Shown here in pieces: positions 1-23,294 of a stretch of DNA of 64,000 nucleotides. Numbering within the stretch: the stretch's first letter is position 1; each line of letters opens with the position of its first letter. The position numbers and the translations under genes are program-made. The stretch is taken from contig OY969116.1 in NCBI GenBank assembly GCA_963698075.1, positions 465,830 through 529,829 on the forward strand. Reading direction: 5' to 3'. The notes below the pieces were generated by a model that did not search any database, was not told where the DNA came from, and saw nothing but the letters and a program-made list of their open reading frames with translations. Origin of the DNA: an uncultured Candidatus Berkelbacteria bacterium. GTDB lineage: Bacteria > Patescibacteriota > UBA1384 > UBA12157 > JAENIV01.

Positions 1-194
1 TCTTGCTGAATTAGCAAGTAAGTTTTCTTTTCCATTAAAAACTTTGCTGCCAAGAGACGGCGCGAGAAGTCCTTGATCTCAGCGGAAGAAAAAATGTCTT
101 CTAGAAACATTTCCAATTCAGCTTTGTCTTTTAGATCTCCTAAGGTCTCGACGAATAATTTTTTCGCCTCACTATCAATTCCTTTTTTCGGCAT
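1..194 (-). CDS. Partial CDS (3' end runs off the window): TrpR/YerC-like small DNA-binding protein
   Basis: The minus-strand translation begins MPKKGIDSEAKKLFVETLGDLKDKAELEMFLEDIFSSAEIKDFSRRLLAAKFLMEK. The ATG is at 192-194 (reverse complement), preceded by a GGAGGTGG ribosome-binding site. The call rests on family resemblance only. Confidence 0.35.
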   Translation of the reverse strand, partial: MPKKGIDSEAKKLFVETLGDLKDKAELEMFLEDIFSSAEIKDFSRRLLAAKFLMEKKTYLLIQQ

Positions 195-2382: not shown

Positions 2383-4260
2383 TTATCGTTGTAACATTTT
2401 CAAAAATACGTCGTCGGGAATTTGGACTTTGCCGAGTTGTTTCATTTTTTTCTTTCCTGCGGCTTGTTTTTTAAGAAGTTTGTTTTTCCTAGTAACGTCG
2501 CCGCCGTAAAGTTTAGCAATCACATCTTTACGCATTGCCGGGATATCTTCGCGGGCTAAAATTTTATTATTGACCGCCGCTTGAATTGAAACTTCGAACA
2601 TTTGCCGCGGGATAAGTTCTTTTAATTTTAAGACTAAATTTTTAGCTTCGGACATCATCTTATGGCGGGGGATAACCCGCGAGAATTCCTCGACTTTGTC
2701 GCCGGCAATTAAAACATCTAATTTTACTAAATCACCCGGACGGTAGCCGATGAATTCATAATTTTGCGACGCATATCCGGACGAGACAGATTTTAATTTA
2801 TCGTAAAAATCAACAATAATTTCCGCCAAAGGCACCTCGTATTCCAAAATTGTGCGGTCGCCTAAATAATTTGTATTTTTATAGATTGCCCGCCGCGATT
2901 GCACGAGTTCCATCACCGGCCCCACATATTCCTGCGGTGTTATAATCTCCAACCGCACCCACGGCTCTTCATAGTTGTTAGGTGTAAGTTTTAATCGATA
3001 TGCCACTTGGGGTTGAGTCACGATCAAATTGAGTCCGTATTCGCGTTCTAAACGCTCTTTGACGATTTCTAAATGTAATAACCCCAAAAAACCACAGCGA
3101 AATCCCTGGCCAAAGCTTTTTGATGATTCCGGTGTAAAATTTAAACTCGAATCATTAAGCGAAAGTTTTTCTAACGATTGGCGTAAAAGTTGGGGATCGC
3201 CGCCTTGAATATAGAAACTGGCAAAGACGAAACTTTTAGGAATTTTAAAACCCAAAATAGGGGAGACCGAAACGGGGGAGTCGCCCGTGATGGTATCGCC
3301 AACTTTAATATTTTTTAATTCCCGCTCGCCAGTGACAACGTAGCCGATCTCACCTACTTTCAAAAATTCGCATGGCTCATATTTTAGACGAAAGCTCCCC
3401 ACCTCGGTGGCAGTCTCAGTATTACTTGTTCCTAAAAATTTAATTTTATCGCCTTTTTTTACTTCCCCCTCGAAGACTCTCACATAAGCAATGGCTCCAC
3501 GAAATTCATCATAGACAGAATCAAAAATCAGGGCTTTAAAATCGCACACCCTCTCCCCTTTTGGCGCCGGTACACGATTAATAATTTCTTGTAATAGATT
3601 TTCCACGCCCTCACCGGTTTTAGCCGAGATTAATAATATTGCTTTTTCATCAATATTTAAGAGTTTCGCTATCTCCTCTTTCGTCTCTTCTATCCTTGCG
3701 CCTGGCAAATCAATTTTATTAATCACGGGAATAATTTTTAAATTGTGTTCTTGGGCGATACCTGTCTGCCGACAGGCAAGATGCAAATTCGCCAACGTTT
3801 GGGCCTGGATTCCTTTCGTCGCATCTACTAACAAAATCGCGCCCTCAACCGCCGCTAGCGACCGCGAAACTTCGTAGGAAAAATCAACATGACCAGGAGT
3901 ATCAATCAAATTCAGAATATATTCTGAATTTGCAATTTTTAAATCCGAATTTCTAATGTCTAAACTATTTGAATTTTTACTATTTTGAATTGAATGCCTT
4001 GCCTCTGGCAGTGGGGATTTGTTTAGGATTTCGGATTTAGGATTTAGGATTTCATGATTTGGTCTCCAAATCATGGTAACTGGTTGTAATTTAATTGTTA
4101 TCCCCCGCTCGCGTTCGAGATCCATCGTATCGAGCATTTGCGGTTTTAGTTTTTCGTGAGCGACGGTGCCGGTAATTTCCAACATCCTATCAGCCAAAGT
4201 TGATTTGCCGTGATCAATGTGAGCGATTATAACGAAGTTGCGTATATTTTCTTGATTCAT
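2383..4260 (-). CDS. lepA: Translation elongation factor 4 (LepA)
   Basis: N-terminal IIAHIDHGKSTLADR (G1) and LIDTPGHVDFSYEVSRSL (G3) are present, with full-length collinearity to LepA. A low-complexity insert of about 41 aa lies between the ITIK and DTPGH motifs. Confidence 0.9.
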   Translation of the reverse strand: MNQENIRNFVIIAHIDHGKSTLADRMLEITGTVAHEKLKPQMLDTMDLERERGITIKLQPVTMIWRPNHEILNPKSEILNKSPLPEARHSIQNSKNSNSLDIRNSDLKIANSEYILNLIDTPGHVDFSYEVSRSLAAVEGAILLVDATKGIQAQTLANLHLACRQTGIAQEHNLKIIPVINKIDLPGARIEETKEEIAKLLNIDEKAILLISAKTGEGVENLLQEIINRVPAPKGERVCDFKALIFDSVYDEFRGAIAYVRVFEGEVKKGDKIKFLGTSNTETATEVGSFRLKYEPCEFLKVGEIGYVVTGERELKNIKVGDTITGDSPVSVSPILGFKIPKSFVFASFYIQGGDPQLLRQSLEKLSLNDSSLNFTPESSKSFGQGFRCGFLGLLHLEIVKERLEREYGLNLIVTQPQVAYRLKLTPNNYEEPWVRLEIITPQEYVGPVMELVQSRRAIYKNTNYLGDRTILEYEVPLAEIIVDFYDKLKSVSSGYASQNYEFIGYRPGDLVKLDVLIAGDKVEEFSRVIPRHKMMSEAKNLVLKLKELIPRQMFEVSIQAAVNNKILAREDIPAMRKDVIAKLYGGDVTRKNKLLKKQAAGKKKMKQLGKVQIPDDVFLKMLQR

Positions 4261-11398: not shown

Positions 11399-12553
11399 TT
11401 AGATCATTTCATCATCATCGATATCTTCTCTACCTTCTGGCGGTTCGAATTGTCCCTTTTTCTTTTTCCGCCACCACCAAATAACAAAGATGGTAGCCGT
11501 AATCAAAACCGGGACGCCAATAAAGAGAATTAAGGCCCAGGTTGTCGAAATTCCAAAACCAGCGACTTTCGTTTCGGGCGAAGGCGTGAATTCAGACGGA
11601 AAGAGAGATTCAATGGGTGTTGGACTGCTGATAATTTCCGACGTCGGTGTCACCAAGGCCACCTCGGTCGGTGTCGGGCTGGGCAAGTTTTCGGGGGGTG
11701 ATGTCTCTGATGGCTCAGGCGTCGGTGAAGGTGAGGCTGGTGTTGGTGAGGGTTTTAGACAATCAGAATAGGTCACACATTCGTTGGCCCCCGCACCACT
11801 GACCTTGAGACAGACGCGCTTAGCGGCATTACAAACATGATGATGCTCAACGGCAACCTGACAGTCAATGTCACTTGAACACTGATTGGCGCCGGCGCCG
11901 CTCATTGTCTGGCAAGTTTGGCTCGATGTATCACAAACCGAGTGAGATTCGTTACCGGCAACAGTTATGTTCATTGGAACCGCAGAGGTCAAAATATCAT
12001 TACCCCCTGCCTTGGCAATCACATCGGTGTCGCCGATTGTCCCACTGGTAAAATCAAAATTCAAGTTAGATGTTCCCGCCGCCTTGGCACTGAAATAAAT
12101 TATTGCCACTGTGCCAGCTCCCGAAAAACCCAAACCATTCGCGTCAGGCGTCTTGGCGACATAAGTGACCTTGCCGGTCGTTGTCTCAACGCTATTTTCT
12201 AAAACCGCCAAATCTCCCAAAGAACCAGGAGCAACTTGAACCCCGGCGCTCGCTTCATCTTGATCGACAACATCTAAAACCGATGTATTGTAGTTAAATG
12301 ATCTCAGGGCCACCTCAGAAACCTCGGTACCTCCGGTATCAAGATTGATATAAACCGTGAAAGTGACTCCAGGTTTATAAGTTGACGAGTCTGATTGTAG
12401 ACTTAAAGAAGCCTCACCCGGTGCCGCAAGGGGGGTAATTTTGCCGACGGCAATCGCCCAAATAAAGACACCGACACCGAACAAAATCACGAGAACAATT
12501 AAAGAATAAATTACTTGAAGTTTTTTGGGCAGTCTCTTAAAACGGCGCCACAT
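11399..12553 (-). CDS. Surface protein with duplicated Cys-rich modules, a Pro/Thr/Ser linker and a C-terminal TM + KKKK anchor
   Basis: N-terminal signal anchor. Two C..C..SGAGAN(Q/E)C...DC repeats. A PSPTPE linker. C-terminal hydrophobic segment followed by WWWRKKKKG. Confidence 0.45.
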   Translation of the reverse strand: MWRRFKRLPKKLQVIYSLIVLVILFGVGVFIWAIAVGKITPLAAPGEASLSLQSDSSTYKPGVTFTVYINLDTGGTEVSEVALRSFNYNTSVLDVVDQDEASAGVQVAPGSLGDLAVLENSVETTTGKVTYVAKTPDANGLGFSGAGTVAIIYFSAKAAGTSNLNFDFTSGTIGDTDVIAKAGGNDILTSAVPMNITVAGNESHSVCDTSSQTCQTMSGAGANQCSSDIDCQVAVEHHHVCNAAKRVCLKVSGAGANECVTYSDCLKPSPTPASPSPTPEPSETSPPENLPSPTPTEVALVTPTSEIISSPTPIESLFPSEFTPSPETKVAGFGISTTWALILFIGVPVLITATIFVIWWWRKKKKGQFEPPEGREDIDDDEMI

Positions 12554-12589: not shown

Positions 12590-14404
12590 TTAACTAAAGA
12601 GTTTGTCAAACTCTGGACCTTCAATCGTTTCTTCCCGGACGAGTTTATCGGCGATTTTTTTTAAGATATTTTTCTTTTTCTTTAAAATTTCCGTCGCCAC
12701 TTTCTGGGCTTGCGAAATTATCGCTGAGACTTCTTTATCGATCTCCGCGGCGATTGTTTCGGAATAATTGCGTTCCTCGTGAATTTCCCGACCCAAAAAG
12801 ATTAATTCTTCTTTCTCACCTAAAACAACAGGGCCTAATTTCTCAGACATGCCATAAATCATTACCATATCTCGAGCCATTTTGGTGGCACGTCTGAGAT
12901 CATTTTGGGCGCCGGTCGTCACTTGTCCAAAAATTATTTTTTCCGCCGCAAAACCAGCTAACAATTGAGCGATGTCATCTTGAAATTTGGCTTTCGAATA
13001 GAGTTTACGATCTTCTTGAGGTAATGACCAAGTATATCCCAAAGCTACCCCGCGCGAGACCACCGAAACCTTGTGAATCGGGTCGCAATTGGGCAAAACT
13101 TTGCCGACGATTGAATGTCCGGCCTCGTGGAAAGCAGAAATTTCTTTTTCTTTGGGTGACATGAGGTGAGATTTTCTCTCGGGACCAAGCATGACTTTTT
13201 CAATTGAATCGGATAAATCTTTTTGTCTGATTTCTTTCTCGTTGTTGCGGGCTGCCAAAATTGCCGCTTCGTTCATAATATTGCGAAGATCGGCTCCCGA
13301 AAGACCGGCTGTTTGTTTGGCAATAATCCCTAAATCAGCTTCATGATCGAGAGGTTTTCCCCGTGAATGAATCTTCAAAATCGCCTCACGCTCATTAAGA
13401 TCGGGTAAGTCAATGACGATGCGCCGATCAAAACGGCCAGGTCTAAGTAGGGCCGGGTCTAAAACATCGGGACGATTGGTCGCCGCCACCACAATTACCC
13501 GTGTATCGGTCTCAAAACCGTCCATTTCCACCAAAATTTGATTTAAAGTTTGCTCTCTCTCGTCATGCGAACCGCCCAAACCCGCGCCCCGCTGACGGCC
13601 AATGGCATCGAGCTCATCGACAAAAAGAATCGCCGGAGCATTGCGTTTAGCTTTTTGGAATAAATCTCTTACTCTCGCGGCTCCCACCCCAACGAACATC
13701 TCGACAAATTCTGAAGCCGAGATCGAAAAGAAAGGCACGCCGGCTTCGCCAGCAACGGCTTTGGCCAAGAGAGTCTTGCCTGTCCCTGGCGGACCAACCA
13801 ACAGAACTCCCTTGGGAATTTCCGCCCCTAATTGTCTGAATTTACCAGGACTTCGTAAAAATTCCACTACTTCTTGAAGCTCTTGCTTTGGTTCAAGGAG
13901 ACCTGCCACATCGCGAAAGGTAATTTTTTTGGCACCAGGACCAAAAAGACGCGCCCGCGATTGACCAAAAGACATCGCCCTAATATTGCCAATTTGAGCT
14001 TGCCGAAGCATAAAGTACAAAAAACCGCCGATTAGAAGAAACGGTAAAACAATTGACAAGAATGTGGGCCAAAAAGTACTTTTATCAGGATTGTTGACGT
14101 CAATCGCCACTTTATCGGGAGTAATCCCATAATCTTTTAAAGTCGCCGAAGCTTCTTTATACCCTTGCTGCTCGGTACCATCTTTGAGTTTAGCCGTAAT
14201 TTGGTCTTGATTAACCGTAATCGAGGTCACCTTGCCATCCTGGACTTCTTGAGCAATCTCGGAAATCGGCACTTGCTGAGGTTTACTGCCAGATGGGGCC
14301 ACCAAAGAATAGATAATTAAGCCAACGACAAGGGCGACAATTACATAAAAAATATTACGAAAGCAATTTCCTCTATTCATAGAGATATATTTTAACCCAA
14401 CCAA
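12590..14404 (-). CDS. ftsH: ATP-dependent zinc metalloprotease FtsH
   Basis: Walker A GPPGTGKT, the AAA second region of homology, and the zinc-binding HEAGH motif, with N-terminal TM segments. Confidence 0.9.
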
Positions 14405-14426
14405 AATTTAATTTCAAGTGGCTAAT

Positions 14427-14616
14427 GGTGGCAGCGGCAAGATTCGAACTTGCGACCAACGGCTTATCTCTTCTTCGAATCAGAGATATTTTGCTTGGTG
14501 CCAGCGGCAGGATTTGAACCTGCGACCTAGGGCTTATGAGTCCCTCGCTCTACCCCTGAGCTACGCTGGCAAGCAAAATGGTGAGTCCGCTGCTCTACCA
14601 CTGAGCTACGCTGCCA
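14427..14616 (-). tRNA. Split CAU tRNA gene (5' exon about 14582-14616, 3' exon about 14427-14467 with encoded CCA) interrupted by a ~115-nt insert that contains a whole tRNA-Met gene
   Basis: 5' half: GGCAGCG-TA-GCTC-AGTGGTA-GAGC-A-GCGGA-CTCA. 3' half: (A)TAA-GCCGT-TGGTC-GCAAG-TTCGAAT-CTTGC-CGCTGCC-A-CCA. Joined, they give a perfect 76-nt cloverleaf with anticodon CAT. The insert is flanked by the 10-bp inverted repeat ATTTTGCTTG/CAAGCAAAAT. Confidence 0.5.
14496..14570 (-). tRNA. tRNA-Met (anticodon CAT), intact, nested inside the split tRNA
   Basis: Reverse complement: GCCAGCG-TA-GCTC-AGGGGTA-GAGC-G-AGGGA-CTCATAA-GCCCT-AGGTC-GCAGG-TTCAAAT-CCTGC-CGCTGGC-A-CCA. Confidence 0.8.
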
Positions 14617-14663
14617 CTTCTCAAAAAAAGGATATAATCCGTTTTAAAGGAAGGAATTTTGCT

Positions 14664-14738
14664 TGGTAGCGGGGGGCGGATTTGCACCGCCGATCTCGAG
14701 GTTATGAGCCTCGCGAGATACTACTTCTCCACCCCGCG
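14664..14738 (-). tRNA. Initiator-like tRNA-fMet (anticodon CAT) with atypical D and T loops
   Basis: Reverse complement: CGCGGGG-TG-GAGA-AGTAGTA-TCTC-G-CGAGG-CTCATAA-CCTCG-AGATC-GGCGG-TGCAAAT-CCGCC-CCCCGCT-A-CCA. It has a C1xU72 mismatch and an A11:U24 pair, both initiator hallmarks. The D loop lacks GG and the T loop is TGCAAAT. Confidence 0.65.
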
Positions 14739-14972
14739 TCGTAATATATCTTTGAGAAACTCCCTTCCGACACCACTCTTGAAATACTTCTCTTTTTTTC
14801 TAGCCTCTGTCCGCGACGAAAATTTCTCAGAATATATTAGTTTGTATGGTCTATATGCTTTTGTCGATCTATGATATCCATGCAGGTGTTCATGGAGCCT
14901 CCTCCTTATCGAATTAGTAATTCCCGTATATAAACGTTTATTATTATTCGCTAACACATAGACATAATACAT
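14721..14972 (-). CDS. GIY-YIG domain nuclease (YhbQ/URI-like, 83 aa)
   Basis: MYYVYVLANNNKRLYTGITNSIRRRLHEHLHG is the GIY-YIG motif. The last codons RGVEK-stop are encoded by the 5' end of the tRNA-fMet gene, an 18-nt overlap. Confidence 0.7.
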   Translation of the reverse strand: MYYVYVLANNNKRLYTGITNSIRRRLHEHLHGYHRSTKAYRPYKLIYSEKFSSRTEARKKEKYFKSGVGREFLKDILRRGVEK

Positions 14973-15003
14973 CTTAGTATACTAATGCATGCGCATTATA
15001 AGG

Positions 15004-15057
15004 CTCGCGAGACCTGCCTGCCGGCAGGCAGGTACTACTTCTCCACCCCGCGTCATC
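15004..15057 (-). pseudogene. Duplicated 5' fragment of the tRNA-fMet gene with a 22-nt palindromic insert
   Basis: CCACCCCGCG...ACTACTTCTCC repeats tRNA-fMet positions 1-20. Then comes the insert ACCTGCCTGCCGGCAGGCAGGT. Then an anticodon arm with loop CTTATAA and no 3' half. Confidence 0.5.
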
Positions 15058-15146
15058 TTTCACATCATACAACAAAAAACTCGAACTGGAGAGCTCATAA
15101 TTATTTTATCAGCAAATCGGCCAAAAATCAAGATATATGGAAATCT

Positions 15147-16241
15147 TTAAAATATCCAAGTAGCGGTAATTCCTACCTGCCGACCAGGCTGGCTTTTGGC
15201 AAGTTTACTTTTCCTTAAGATAACTAAACCAATCCCCGTCACAGCCAGGCCAGAAAAAACAATCACATAAATTATCCAATAATTTTTAAGGGAATTTTTG
15301 AAACCAGCAAATAAACCTTGTTCTTGCTCGCCCGTATTTTTGGTAATTACGGTTTTGTTGACGGTTAATTTTCCCAAGATCAAATTCGAGGATGTCCCAG
15401 CTTTATCTTTAGCCACAATTTTAACCTCGGCAGTCCCCTCTTTTTCGATTTTTTGACGAACTGTATAAGTTTTTTCACCATCGTTACTGGTGATTGTCGG
15501 CGCTTCCAAAAGATTTATCTTCTGATCAAAAACCTGGGCTTCAAGGCTTTGAACATCACCAGTAATCGTCGCTCCAAAAGTGACCTCCTCGCCAGCAAAA
15601 ATCGTTTGGGGAGAAAATGAAGATTTTTCCCTCACAAAAACCACCGGTTCGACTGAGGATGTCGGGGTTGGATTGGGATTAGCCGACTGATTGGCTTGAG
15701 GCTGGTTAGTAGTTTCGTTTGCCGGGGTCGCCTGTTCTGAAGCAACTTCCCCACCTTCAAGCGGCGTCCCAAATTCTTGAGCCACTAAAATCGTCTCTGC
15801 CCCCTCATAAGTGCCGGAGATGACGGCAATACCAATTTCTCGAAAGTTGGGATTTAAAATATTTTGACGGTGAGTGGCAGAAGCCATCCAAGCATTAAAA
15901 AGTTCGCTAGCATCAGTATAGCCAATAGCCAAGTTCTCGCCGGCATAGGAATAATTATAACCCGCGCCTTTAATAAAGTCCCAAGGGGTTTTCCCCGAAG
16001 GTGAAGTATGGGCAAAATATTGATTGGTAAGCATATCTTGGGCTTTAGCATAAGCCGCCGAAGAAAGTTTTGAGTTGGAAGTTAGCGCTCCCAGACCGTT
16101 ACGGGCGCGCGCCGAATTAGTCATTGAAACTAAGGATCCAGCTGAATAGGCCGCTTGAGCATAGCTAAAATTCGCGAGAACTAATGAAAGAAAAATAAAT
16201 CCGCTAATAAATTTTAAAACTTTGATTTTTGTTTTTGACAC
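15147..16241 (-). CDS. Secreted/anchored CAP-domain (SCP/PR-1, YkwD-like) protein with Pro/Thr-rich linker and C-terminal TM
   Basis: Signal peptide, then the CAP-domain core YFAHTSPSG...GENLA...W..S..H..N. C-terminal TM segment followed by RKSKLAK. Confidence 0.65.
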   Translation of the reverse strand: MSKTKIKVLKFISGFIFLSLVLANFSYAQAAYSAGSLVSMTNSARARNGLGALTSNSKLSSAAYAKAQDMLTNQYFAHTSPSGKTPWDFIKGAGYNYSYAGENLAIGYTDASELFNAWMASATHRQNILNPNFREIGIAVISGTYEGAETILVAQEFGTPLEGGEVASEQATPANETTNQPQANQSANPNPTPTSSVEPVVFVREKSSFSPQTIFAGEEVTFGATITGDVQSLEAQVFDQKINLLEAPTITSNDGEKTYTVRQKIEKEGTAEVKIVAKDKAGTSSNLILGKLTVNKTVITKNTGEQEQGLFAGFKNSLKNYWIIYVIVFSGLAVTGIGLVILRKSKLAKSQPGRQVGITATWIF

Positions 16242-16284
16242 ATCCCCTCCTGAGGATTTTATCCCTTTTTGAGGATATTAAAGT

Positions 16285-16313
16285 ATTGTACCATAAAAAT
16301 CGCCCCGTGTCAA
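16285..16313 (-). promoter_or_regulatory. Sigma70-like promoter for the CAP-domain gene
   Basis: On the minus strand, TTGACA (16308-16313), a 17-nt spacer, then TACAAT (16285-16290). An AGGAGG ribosome-binding site and the ATG follow about 40 nt downstream. Confidence 0.5.
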
Positions 16314-16480
16314 TACACGGTGTTCAAATTTCTAAGCTCCAATTTCTAAATAGCGAGCCATGTGTCCTCAAAAGTGGCTCTCGCAGGCCAAAAAGCACGG
16401 TCCCAGAGCGAAGCGGCGGGTTTTTGGCCGAGAGCGCAGGCACCGATTGCGCGCTGGAGCAATCGTAGTGCCGGCATCTT

Positions 16481-16509
16481 TTGACGGATACTGGCGAGCG
16501 ATATATAAT
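16481..16509 (+). promoter_or_regulatory. Sigma70-like promoter (TTGACG-17-TATAAT) reading into the GC-rich non-coding region
   Basis: TTGACG at 16481-16486, spacer GATACTGGCGAGCGATA, then TATAAT at 16504-16509. Confidence 0.45.
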
Positions 16510-23081: not shown

Positions 23082-23197
23082 TGGGCACACCAGGACTCGA
23101 ACCTGGAACCAGTTGTGTCTAAAACCTTCACAAAAATGGGATCGGATGGATTCGAACTATCGGCAACCTCCTTATTTCAAAATGTGCAACTTAAAAA
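23082..23197 (-). pseudogene. tRNA 3'-half fragments (two T-arm/acceptor remnants)
   Basis: 23082-23136 reverse complement: TGGTT-CCAGG-TTCGAGT-CCTGG-TGTGCCC-A. 23137-23175 reverse complement: ATAA-GGAGG-TTGCC-GATAG-TTCGAAT-CCATC-CGATCCC-A. Neither fragment has a contiguous 5' half. Confidence 0.4.
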
Positions 23198-23269
23198 TGC
23201 GCACGCCTGGATTCGGACCAGGAACCGTCGCCTTATAAGAGCGATGCTCTGCCATTGAGCTACGTGCGC
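23198..23269 (-). tRNA. tRNA-Ile (anticodon TAT)
   Basis: Reverse complement: GCGCACG-TA-GCTC-AATGGCA-GAGC-A-TCGCT-CTTATAA-GGCGA-CGGTT-CCTGG-TCCGAAT-CCAGG-CGTGCGC-A. No encoded CCA. Flanked by the 12-bp inverted repeat TTTCAAAATGTG (23175-23186) / CACATTTTGAAA (23269-23280). Confidence 0.75.
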
Positions 23270-23294
23270 ACATTTTGAAAAATGTCTAACATTT

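Follow-up and report, generated by a model that had tools for sequence, protein, structure and literature searches.

A 314-nt element with a minimal GIY-YIG nuclease gene in an initiator tRNA gene of a Berkelbacteria-like bacterium: a candidate member of a mobile family that brings its own tRNA segment

Why does a gene for a minimal GIY-YIG nuclease lie between an intact initiator tRNA gene and a broken second copy of the 5′ region of the same tRNA? This question is raised by a locus in a 64-kb stretch of contig OY969116.1 (64,000 nt, called the window throughout), which stems from an uncultured Berkelbacteria-like bacterium of the candidate phyla radiation (CPR). An earlier note on the sequence had taken the arrangement for a mobile, homing-nuclease-like insertion with duplication of its target. 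In our best reading, the feature is a 314-nt autonomous selfish element within the tRNA-fMet gene, which consists, in this order, of a 20-nt palindrome (PAL), a decayed copy of tRNA positions 21–38, the nuclease gene, and a fresh copy of tRNA positions 1–20. The element apparently belongs to a large and hitherto undescribed family that resides beside tRNA genes in many bacterial phyla; searches of the full-text literature, which covered the PAL sequence itself as well as GIY-YIG in connection with tRNA or palindromes, retrieved no description of this system.

All features of the locus are on the minus strand, flanked by a CAP-domain gene (15147–16241) and by ftsH (12590–14404). In the direction of transcription, the first of them is a promoter-like site of the native tRNA-fMet gene (15103–15131; TTGATT-17 nt-TAAAAT with a TG), which lies upstream of the broken tRNA copy, and the promoter block TTGATTTTT...GATAAAATAAT is also found 5′ of the intact tRNA-fMet in the relatives L241, L237, and L244. 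This native promoter presumably drives the broken copy, PAL, the open reading frame (ORF), and the tRNA. It is followed by the displaced 5′ stump of the resident tRNA-fMet, positions −3 to 20 (15033–15055), an exact 20-nt repeat of 14719–14738. The 20-mer concerned, CGCGGGGTGGAGAAGTAGTA, has exactly two copies in the window, at 14719–14738 and 15033–15052 (0.00 expected in shuffled sequence), and the identity between stump and tRNA runs 3 nt 5′ beyond tRNA position 1. Next to the stump is PAL, the perfect palindrome CCTGCCTGCCGGCAGGCAGG (15013–15032, without strand; expected 0.00 times in the window by chance), which separates tRNA positions 20 and 21 at the boundary between the D-loop and the 3′ strand of the D-stem. 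Together with an outer A and T, which are tRNA bases 20 and 21, this 20-mer core forms the perfect 22-nt palindrome at 15012–15033 that had been recognized before as interrupting the tRNA copy. It is not an incidental interruption, since the 20-mer is invariant across phyla and also occurs alone. Beyond PAL, the tRNA sequence continues as a decayed, element-borne copy of positions 21–38 (14996–15012; 88% identity) with two changes, GAGGCTCATAA to GAGCCTTATAA, which turn the anticodon loop CTCATAA into CTTATAA(T). The second 5′ copy and its altered anticodon loop had thus been described correctly in the earlier note; only the extent, given there as 15004–15057, has to be corrected to 14996–15055. 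The same changes have created a TATAAT box 24 nt 5′ of the ORF, and the decayed tRNA piece now supplies a −10 box; comparable TATAAT boxes are present at the same place in the loci L017, L021, L055, and L060.

The ORF (14721–14972, 83 codons) ends with CGC GGG GTG GAG AAG TAG. As had been noticed, these codons are the first 18 nt of the tRNA (positions 1–18), and they yield R-G-V-E-K and the stop. The intact tRNA-fMet (anticodon CAT, 14664–14738) is called by ARAGORN as well as by Rfam (56.2 bits), and the C1xU72 mismatch and the A11:U24 pair read from its sequence are initiator features, in agreement with its former description as initiator-like. Positions 1–20 of this tRNA (14719–14738) were brought by the element, whereas positions 21–76 are resident. 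Because the fresh copy of positions 1–20 fuses to the resident positions 21–76, the cell keeps a perfect tRNA-fMet, and the old 5′ end is left with its promoter as an upstream stump. The extent of the whole insertion, 314 nt (14719–15032), results from the spacing of the repeats and from the comparison with L241; the break point can be placed anywhere inside the 20–23 nt repeat.

By its FtsH sequence, the bacterium falls among the Berkelbacteria-like CPR bacteria. The CAP-to-ftsH interval was compared across nine contigs of relatives, with FtsH identity as the measure of relatedness. In L241 (FtsH 92%), the promoter block is followed by a tRNA-fMet identical to that of the window, and stump, PAL, and ORF are missing. 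In comparison, the window has exactly 314 extra bases (14719–15032) between the syntenic CAP and ftsH genes. Thus, the insertion in the window is recent. The tRNA after the ORF does not differ from that of the empty allele, and only the stump copy is interrupted, by PAL. The tRNA-fMet site is also empty in L237/L238, L244, and L245 (FtsH 83–90%), so that the search for insert-free alleles proposed in the earlier note was successful. That a mobile element has inserted at the tRNA gene and that a segment of the tRNA is duplicated, as the earlier note had proposed, is borne out by the insert-free L241 and by the tRNA adjacency of related genes described below. The target duplication, in contrast, stands only in part: a tRNA segment is duplicated, but it is not a short duplication of the transposon type, because the carried segment completes the resident gene and sister elements carry the 3′ part instead.

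Several conventional kinds of mobile DNA could be rejected at this stage. A large integrated island is ruled out by the size of the insert, 314 nt between syntenic genes. The insert has no gene for a tyrosine or serine recombinase (it holds the single 83-codon ORF, and its flanks are syntenic with those of the relatives), and it has no terminal inverted repeats, as a single PAL marks one end and the opposite junction shows no half-PAL. A transposon with PAL as its two abutted 10-nt ends was discarded based on single-copy loci that lack a half-PAL at the far junction. A group I intron or its remnant was also rejected for the window: apart from the two tRNAs, a permissive Rfam scan (E up to 1) of 13500–16500 gave two weak hits below threshold, both to unrelated families, and no intron or ribozyme, whereas the intron of L243 described next was detected as a positive control.

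The tRNA-fMet gene is a target of several kinds of selfish element. In L242 and L243 (FtsH 84–85%), its anticodon loop contains an insert of ~230 nt, which in L243 (1758–1969) matches the group I intron family RF00028 (66.1 bits) and in L242 remains below the gathering score; a 225-aa ORF with a helix-turn-helix domain lies downstream of the insert. In L239/L240 (FtsH 90%), tRNA positions 1–13 are followed by a different palindrome, CGCTGGTTGCCAGCAGCCAGCG, by 14 nt, and by the intact tRNA. This arrangement (about 1637–1690 in L239, and the same in L240) looks like an ORF-less remnant. In L236 (FtsH 90%), the tRNA-fMet gene is empty, and a GIY-YIG gene of a second lineage (3309–3575; protein 36% identical to that of the window) abuts a fragment of another tRNA(CAT). 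This gene reads into the 5′ end of the fragment, the D-loop of which holds a 67-nt hairpin insert (CCCCGT...ACGGGG) that is not PAL, and a series of further tRNA 5′ halves follows downstream to about 3990.

The GIY-YIG assignment of the 83-aa protein, already made in the earlier note, is supported by Pfam (PF01541, E = 3.1e-15, 56.7 bits with a cut-off of 22.6), and a second Pfam domain was not detected. The Slx1-type catalytic residues are intact: Y5, Y15, G17, R25, H29, and E61 are invariant in a 30-sequence alignment that includes the window protein. In a profile comparison with the PDB, the UPF0213 proteins 1zg2 (E = 1e-11) and 1ywl (E = 1.6e-11) matched best, followed by SLX1 (E = 2e-5 to 8e-4), whereas I-TevI matched only marginally (E = 4e-3). 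The protein shares with the UPF0213 proteins and SLX1 the minimal domain and the catalytic residues, and by these matches it belongs to the minimal Slx1/UPF0213 (YhbQ-type) branch, not to the classical homing-endonuclease branch; a partner such as Slx4 is not evident for it. Both 1ywl and 1zg2 have been placed in the Slx1 lineage as minimal stand-alone domains (PMC1564403). The bacterial Slx1-like lineage has been regarded as descending mainly vertically, with an inferred role in repair and distinct from selfish homing and restriction enzymes (PMC1564403), whereas the clade described here behaves as a mobile element.

The conserved domain stops near residue 77, and the tails of the homologues are variable and read into whichever tRNA comes next; in many of them the C-terminal tail is a translated tRNA 5′ end. 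Therefore, the tRNA-encoded tail is read-through and not a functional module, and the C terminus noticed previously, real as it is, is probably incidental. A DNA-binding module able to read a long target is not present in the protein, the conserved domain of which ends so early, and NCBIfam and PADLOC gave nothing above their cut-offs. The homologues are at most 59% identical and stem from CPR bacteria, Bacteroidota, Ignavibacteria, Chlorobiota, Margulisbacteria, and metagenome-assembled genomes (MAGs) of proteobacteria. A profile search of 1.84 billion representatives, which captures the wider protein family, yielded 27,635 matches with E ≤ 1e-3 and 7,403 with E ≤ 1e-10. Cultured phages (13 records, ≤46% identity) and plasmids (one record) contain distant relatives only, and no relatives were found in IMG/VR, which was searched by peptide pattern.

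To characterize the family, 80 genome loci from several phyla were analyzed, which had been collected with a search seeded by an 8-sequence alignment. A tRNA gene on the same strand abuts the ORF in 66 of the 80 loci (35 downstream, 29 upstream, and 2 on both sides), which also answers the call of the earlier note for further tRNA-adjacent GIY-YIG copies. In the 35 loci of the window type, the downstream tRNA is found at −49 to +24 nt, and it overlaps the ORF in 19 of them. In the 29 loci of the other type, the upstream tRNA ends 0–120 nt before the ORF (about 45–55 nt in the inspected loci). In nearly every locus, the same tRNA is repeated in part on the opposite side of the ORF. Which part is carried depends on the arrangement: with the intact tRNA downstream of the gene it is the 5′ part, and with the intact tRNA upstream it is the 3′ part. 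Tandem arrays of two or three ORF copies are present in 13 of the 80 loci, and the arrays follow one of two formulas, [1-x] + n(PAL, x+1..y, ORF, 1-x) + [x+1..end] or [1-x] + n(x+1..75, spacer, ORF, PAL) + [x+1..75]. Depending on where the tRNA is broken, the repeat measures between 14 and more than 40 nt. When the tRNA is upstream, its hairpin-plus-T-run, which we read as terminator-like, is part of the carried piece, and the displaced resident piece retains the host-specific downstream flank. These two features indicate that the element brings a replacement tRNA segment and that the working tRNA is a chimera.

The family is faithful to tRNA types across phyla. In a neighbour-joining tree of 87 ORFs, the sequences cluster by tRNA type and not by host taxonomy: the Leu, Arg, and Asn clades each span CPR bacteria, Bacteroidota, Ignavibacteria, and proteobacterial MAGs. 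Members of either orientation are found within a clade.

PAL is equally typical of the family. It is present within 150 nt of the ORF in 59 of the 80 loci when up to 3 mismatches are allowed, and it is exact in 38, even though the proteins are only about 50% identical. Among the others, most show PAL with indels, the PAL arms with a larger loop between them, or a GC hairpin of another kind. The 36%-identical L236 gene has tRNA stumps and no PAL. PAL is located 5′ of the ORF in half of the loci and 3′ in the other half. In most mapped cases it sits exactly at the break of the partial tRNA copy, at a D-loop/stem boundary, at the start of the anticodon loop, or in the T-loop. In the window it follows the A at position 20 (window count), which is the conserved A21, and the base 5′ of PAL is an A in 36 of 41 distinct cases. 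An independent sample gave a similar picture: 16 of the 150 best cluster representatives have a translated PAL (LPAGRQ, PACRQA, or CLPAGR) in mis-called N-terminal extensions, and the VAELAD/VELAD-type peptide that precedes several of these we read as a probable translation of a tRNA-Leu 5′ sequence.

However frequent it is beside the gene, PAL is also dispersed on its own. At least 120 metagenomic and 35 viral stretches contain exact PAL, on contigs of 29% to 71% GC. Because isolate genomes, complete genomes, and hundreds of independent assemblies contain it, PAL is not an assembly artefact or adapter. It is thus a dispersed palindromic repeat, found at many unrelated sites and genomes far above chance. 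Among the matches listed, the ORF is within 150 nt at only 9 of 169 PAL sites; of the proteins encoded within 1.5 kb of the listed sites, GIY-YIG was found in 7 loci and the next family in 4, and no family resembling RAYT/HUH or DDE transposases was recognized. A fixed target-site duplication was rejected, as an immediate direct repeat is present at only 3 of 160 solo sites. The flanks of solo PAL copies contain direct repeats in 19% (control 3.7%) and inverted repeats of at least 7 nt in 11% (control 3.5%). The latter count also disposed of the idea that most solo copies are located at the tips of existing hairpins, which is only a tendency. One PAL nested inside another (L032, about 2450–2490) and tandem multimers of two or three copies (L053, 2288–2347 and 2754–2793) suggest that PAL is able to insert into or beside itself.

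Some of the solo copies are tolerated inside genes. In the window, a PAL-like copy with 3 mismatches, CCTGTCTGCCGACAGGCAAG (3761–3780, without strand; 0.00 expected), is located in lepA (2383–4260, minus strand), where it is read in frame as a 7-residue insertion, CRQTGIA (21 nt net). These residues are missing from the solved LepA structures and from 60 of 60 homologues with the motif. The same protein has a low-complexity insertion of ~45 residues, WRPNHEILNPKSEILNKSPLPEARHSIQNSKNSNSLDIRNSDLKIANSE, before the DTPGH motif (residues about 65–113). In L173, an exact PAL (12286–12305) is read in frame in a P-type ATPase gene as LPAGRQ directly before the GDGINDAPAL motif (VAFVGDGINDAPAL), and deletion of its 20 nt breaks the reading frame. 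The viral contig L225 contains a 92-nt tRNA-Met(CAT) (2239–2330) in which an exact PAL forms a long variable arm. ARAGORN still calls this tRNA, so that PAL may be tolerated there as an extra arm; a similar sequence is present in L202.

How could such an element move? That it is a mobile selfish element of this family we regard as very probable. Somewhat less firmly, we lean towards a nuclease-driven element that uses the carried tRNA pieces as homology arms and has PAL as its dispersing hallmark. The specific enzymology that follows is put forward tentatively. SLX1, in the SLX1-SLX4 complex, cuts branched and stem-loop DNA at junctions, which fits the insertion points of the element at loop/stem boundaries. 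By analogy, the nuclease would be structure-specific and would nick or cut the loop/stem junctions of DNA that forms hairpins or cloverleaves, for example in PAL cruciforms and tRNA genes. Once broken, a naive tRNA gene would be repaired from an element-bearing copy, with the carried tRNA pieces as the sole homology and thus as portable arms. If a single crossover, or synthesis-dependent annealing, took place on the side without PAL, both orientations and the arrays would result. A crossover on the PAL side, in contrast, would place PAL within the sole full-length copy of the tRNA, and such products would not persist; only those with a rebuilt tRNA would survive. With tRNA pieces as arms, the element could enter any genome that has the same tRNA, whatever the flanking DNA; as they would be the only homology, the duplication would start at tRNA position 1, where the homology between genomes ends, and the lineages would stay with one tRNA type without a sequence-reading domain. 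The ORF would be expressed from the strong tRNA promoter, and in the window RNase P cleavage at tRNA position 1 would remove the stop codon of the ORF and might limit its expression. PAL would be the cognate hairpin of the nuclease, and solo PAL would be a non-autonomous partner or derivative, comparable to miniature inverted-repeat transposable elements (MITEs).

Several points weigh against this reading. We know of no biochemical activity of this subfamily, and the cutting of tRNA-gene loops or of PAL is purely our inference. The rebuilt tRNA restores the presumed target, which leaves self-cutting unexplained; the tandem arrays suggest that re-entry of the element does happen. The homology arms are short, 15–32 nt on one side. 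Solo PAL copies at non-tRNA sites need a non-homologous route, and to our knowledge there is no chemistry by which a GIY-YIG hydrolase inserts a 20-mer. The insertion of PAL into dead tRNA copies could be secondary, as some partial tRNA copies carry two hairpins. Other hairpins replace PAL in some family members. Lastly, about 95% of the exact PAL sites among the matches listed have no gene nearby, and clear inverted-repeat flanks characterize only 11% of the solo sites (compared with 3.5% of the controls).

A more far-reaching version is possible, and we would not rate it higher than that: PAL and the minimal Slx1-like nuclease would form a new class of mobile system of bacteria and phages of many phyla, in which the nuclease drives the insertion of PAL into exposed positions of folded DNA, for example hairpin loops, and the nuclease gene rides tRNA genes by means of the replacement tRNA segment. 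If true, this would explain the in-frame 7-residue inserts, the extra-arm tRNAs, and possibly the neighbouring tRNA-in-tRNA nests described below.

Among the alternatives, a classical free-standing homing endonuclease survives best, and we consider it unlikely. Such an enzyme, possibly as a dimer or with a host partner, would read and cut one tRNA gene, and the element would be copied in by double-strand-break repair. In the disabled copy, PAL would be no more than a spacer that confers immunity or an operator for autoregulation, and the solo copies would be unrelated debris. The presence/absence polymorphism at a conserved target, the protein clades specific to a tRNA type, and the GIY-YIG domain of the ORF are all expected under this explanation, and an operator has a precedent, as I-TevI represses its own gene via an operator that resembles its site. 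However, PAL precedes the ORF in one half of the loci and follows it in the other, and therefore is not an operator in general. As an immunity spacer any sequence would do, but PAL is the same 20-mer in different phyla and also disperses on its own. In addition, the protein has 83 aa, lacks a DNA-binding domain, and falls into the Slx1 branch, and the target is rebuilt instead of disrupted.

The comparison with the Seg family, free-standing GIY-YIG homing genes of T-even phages such as SegB in the tRNA gene cluster of T4, leads to the same distinction. Common to both are a small, intron-less nuclease gene between or beside conserved genes, including tRNA genes, its polymorphic presence, and its presumed spread by break repair. 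The Seg and Tev enzymes, however, are members of the UvrC/homing-endonuclease lineage and possess a DNA-binding domain, whereas the element encodes a bare 83-aa Slx1/UPF0213 domain; the Seg genes are not known to have a duplicated part of the target gene or an invariant palindrome, and the element has both. Of the traits of a homing endonuclease gene, presence/absence polymorphism was found, and target disruption and a DNA-binding module were not. We would therefore no longer call the element homing-nuclease-like, as the earlier note did, since its domain is bare and its tRNA target is rebuilt, unlike in normal homing immunity.

It is considerably less probable that the ORF is an ordinary host gene, for example for repair, that favours tRNA operons, with stumps arising from local recombination and PAL being an independent repeat, similar to repetitive extragenic palindromic (REP) sequences or Rickettsia palindromic elements (RPE), that is mobilized by another agent and colonizes dead tRNA fragments. 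The vertical descent and repair role inferred for bacterial Slx1-like proteins (PMC1564403) would suit this explanation, as would the lack of the gene near most listed PAL sites and the other hairpin inserts that dead tRNA fragments have gathered in relatives. It is at odds with the absence of the gene from the same locus in relatives with 90–92% FtsH identity, with the tandem arrays, with a tree that tracks tRNA type across phyla, and with the constant architecture that includes a rebuilt tRNA. Moreover, PAL tracks this protein lineage and not tRNA debris, as L236 has stumps and no PAL, and near the listed PAL sites GIY-YIG outnumbers any other family (7 loci compared with at most 4).

Least of all do we believe in an RNA-processing module in place of a DNA parasite, with a nuclease that processes tRNA-like transcripts or excises the PAL hairpin from RNA, so that tRNAs and genes with PAL would continue to work, which would accord with the fusion of a Slx1-like domain to a TrmH-like methyltransferase of tRNA G18 in the D-loop (PMC1564403), with the location of PAL in tRNA loops, with the viral tRNA-Met that is still called, and with the tolerance of PAL inside lepA, but is opposed by the in-frame reading of the lepA and ATPase copies, which makes excision unnecessary, by the truncation of most PAL-bearing tRNA copies, which would not work even with PAL removed, and by the insertion polymorphism, which is at the DNA level.

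Other known systems resemble one or the other aspect of the mobile element that we favour. Islands and prophages with an integrase likewise carry a tRNA segment, restore an intact tRNA, and leave a partial copy as a direct repeat; the element differs from them in the lack of an integrase, in its size of 314 nt, in carrying either the 5′ or the 3′ part, and in the 20-nt palindrome at the junction. Group I introns are also selfish inserts of tRNA genes that keep the tRNA functional, by splicing, whereas the element does so by duplicating a part of the gene. Rickettsia palindromic elements, REP sequences with their REP-associated tyrosine transposases (RAYT), MITEs, and mitochondrial GC clusters share with PAL the nature of a short GC-rich palindrome scattered through genomes, and PAL is, like them, tolerated in frame in conserved proteins (lepA, P-type ATPase) and in structural RNA genes. 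In contrast to these repeats, PAL has only 20 nt, is identical across phyla, and usually causes no target duplication (3/160), and unlike in the case of REP and MITE sequences the only protein linked to it is a GIY-YIG nuclease and not a RAYT/HUH or DDE transposase. The terminal inverted repeats and the fixed short target duplication of transposons and insertion sequences were not found. By analogy, the system would work like a free-standing homing gene combined with the carried-tRNA trick of the islands and with a dispersed palindrome reminiscent of the Rickettsia elements.

The surroundings of the element contain further unusual tRNA genes. At 14426–14615 (minus strand), a tRNA(CAT) gene is split after A35 by 115 nt that hold a complete, different tRNA-Met (14496–14570), with the outer halves at 14582–14615 and 14426–14466. 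The insert consists of CCA and ATTTTGCTT, the inner tRNA-Met, AAGCAAAAT, and a hairpin; the joined outer halves are identical to the uninterrupted L241 gene at 69 of 75 positions, with compensatory changes in the stems. Similar nests, with other inner tRNAs, are present in the relatives L237, L239 (three deep), L244, and L245, and they share a signature of CTCA, CCA and a helix strand, the inner tRNA, a complementary strand that covaries between cassettes, a hairpin, and TAAGCC. In L244, the outer halves mismatch each other and the 3′ half has an extra insert. Because these halves no longer match, the nests are probably relics of DNA-level insertion, and splicing as an intron is unlikely. The nested tRNA looks like a mobile replacement-tRNA cassette; a connection with the GIY-YIG elements is plausible, though no more than that. 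Both intact CAT tRNAs are followed by one and the same 3′ trailer, ACCA-AGCAAAAT (14488–14499 and 14656–14667), and its complement, ATTTTGCTT, precedes the inner tRNA-Met. In addition, the window encodes a tRNA-Ile (23197–23270, minus strand) whose anticodon, TAT, is uncommon among bacteria. With this tRNA, the cell may be able to do without a lysidine-modified tRNA-Ile(CAT), which bears on the question of which CAT tRNAs of the locus are essential.

If our reading is true, about 300 nt and a nuclease of 80 residues would make up the smallest self-contained tRNA-targeting mobile element known to us, one that needs no splicing to keep an essential gene intact, as it supplies a replacement part for that gene. 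This would point to a function of one clade in a very large, uncharacterized family, the members of which were previously taken for repair enzymes, and it would identify a 20-bp sequence that is common to distant phyla and phages. It would also explain annotation artefacts such as tRNA pseudo-fragments, the LPAGRQ/PACRQA N-terminal extensions, and the 7-residue inserts. A compact nuclease with a defined hairpin site and a homology-arm logic could serve genome engineering, and the scarred tRNA loci could be used as strain markers in uncultured CPR bacteria.

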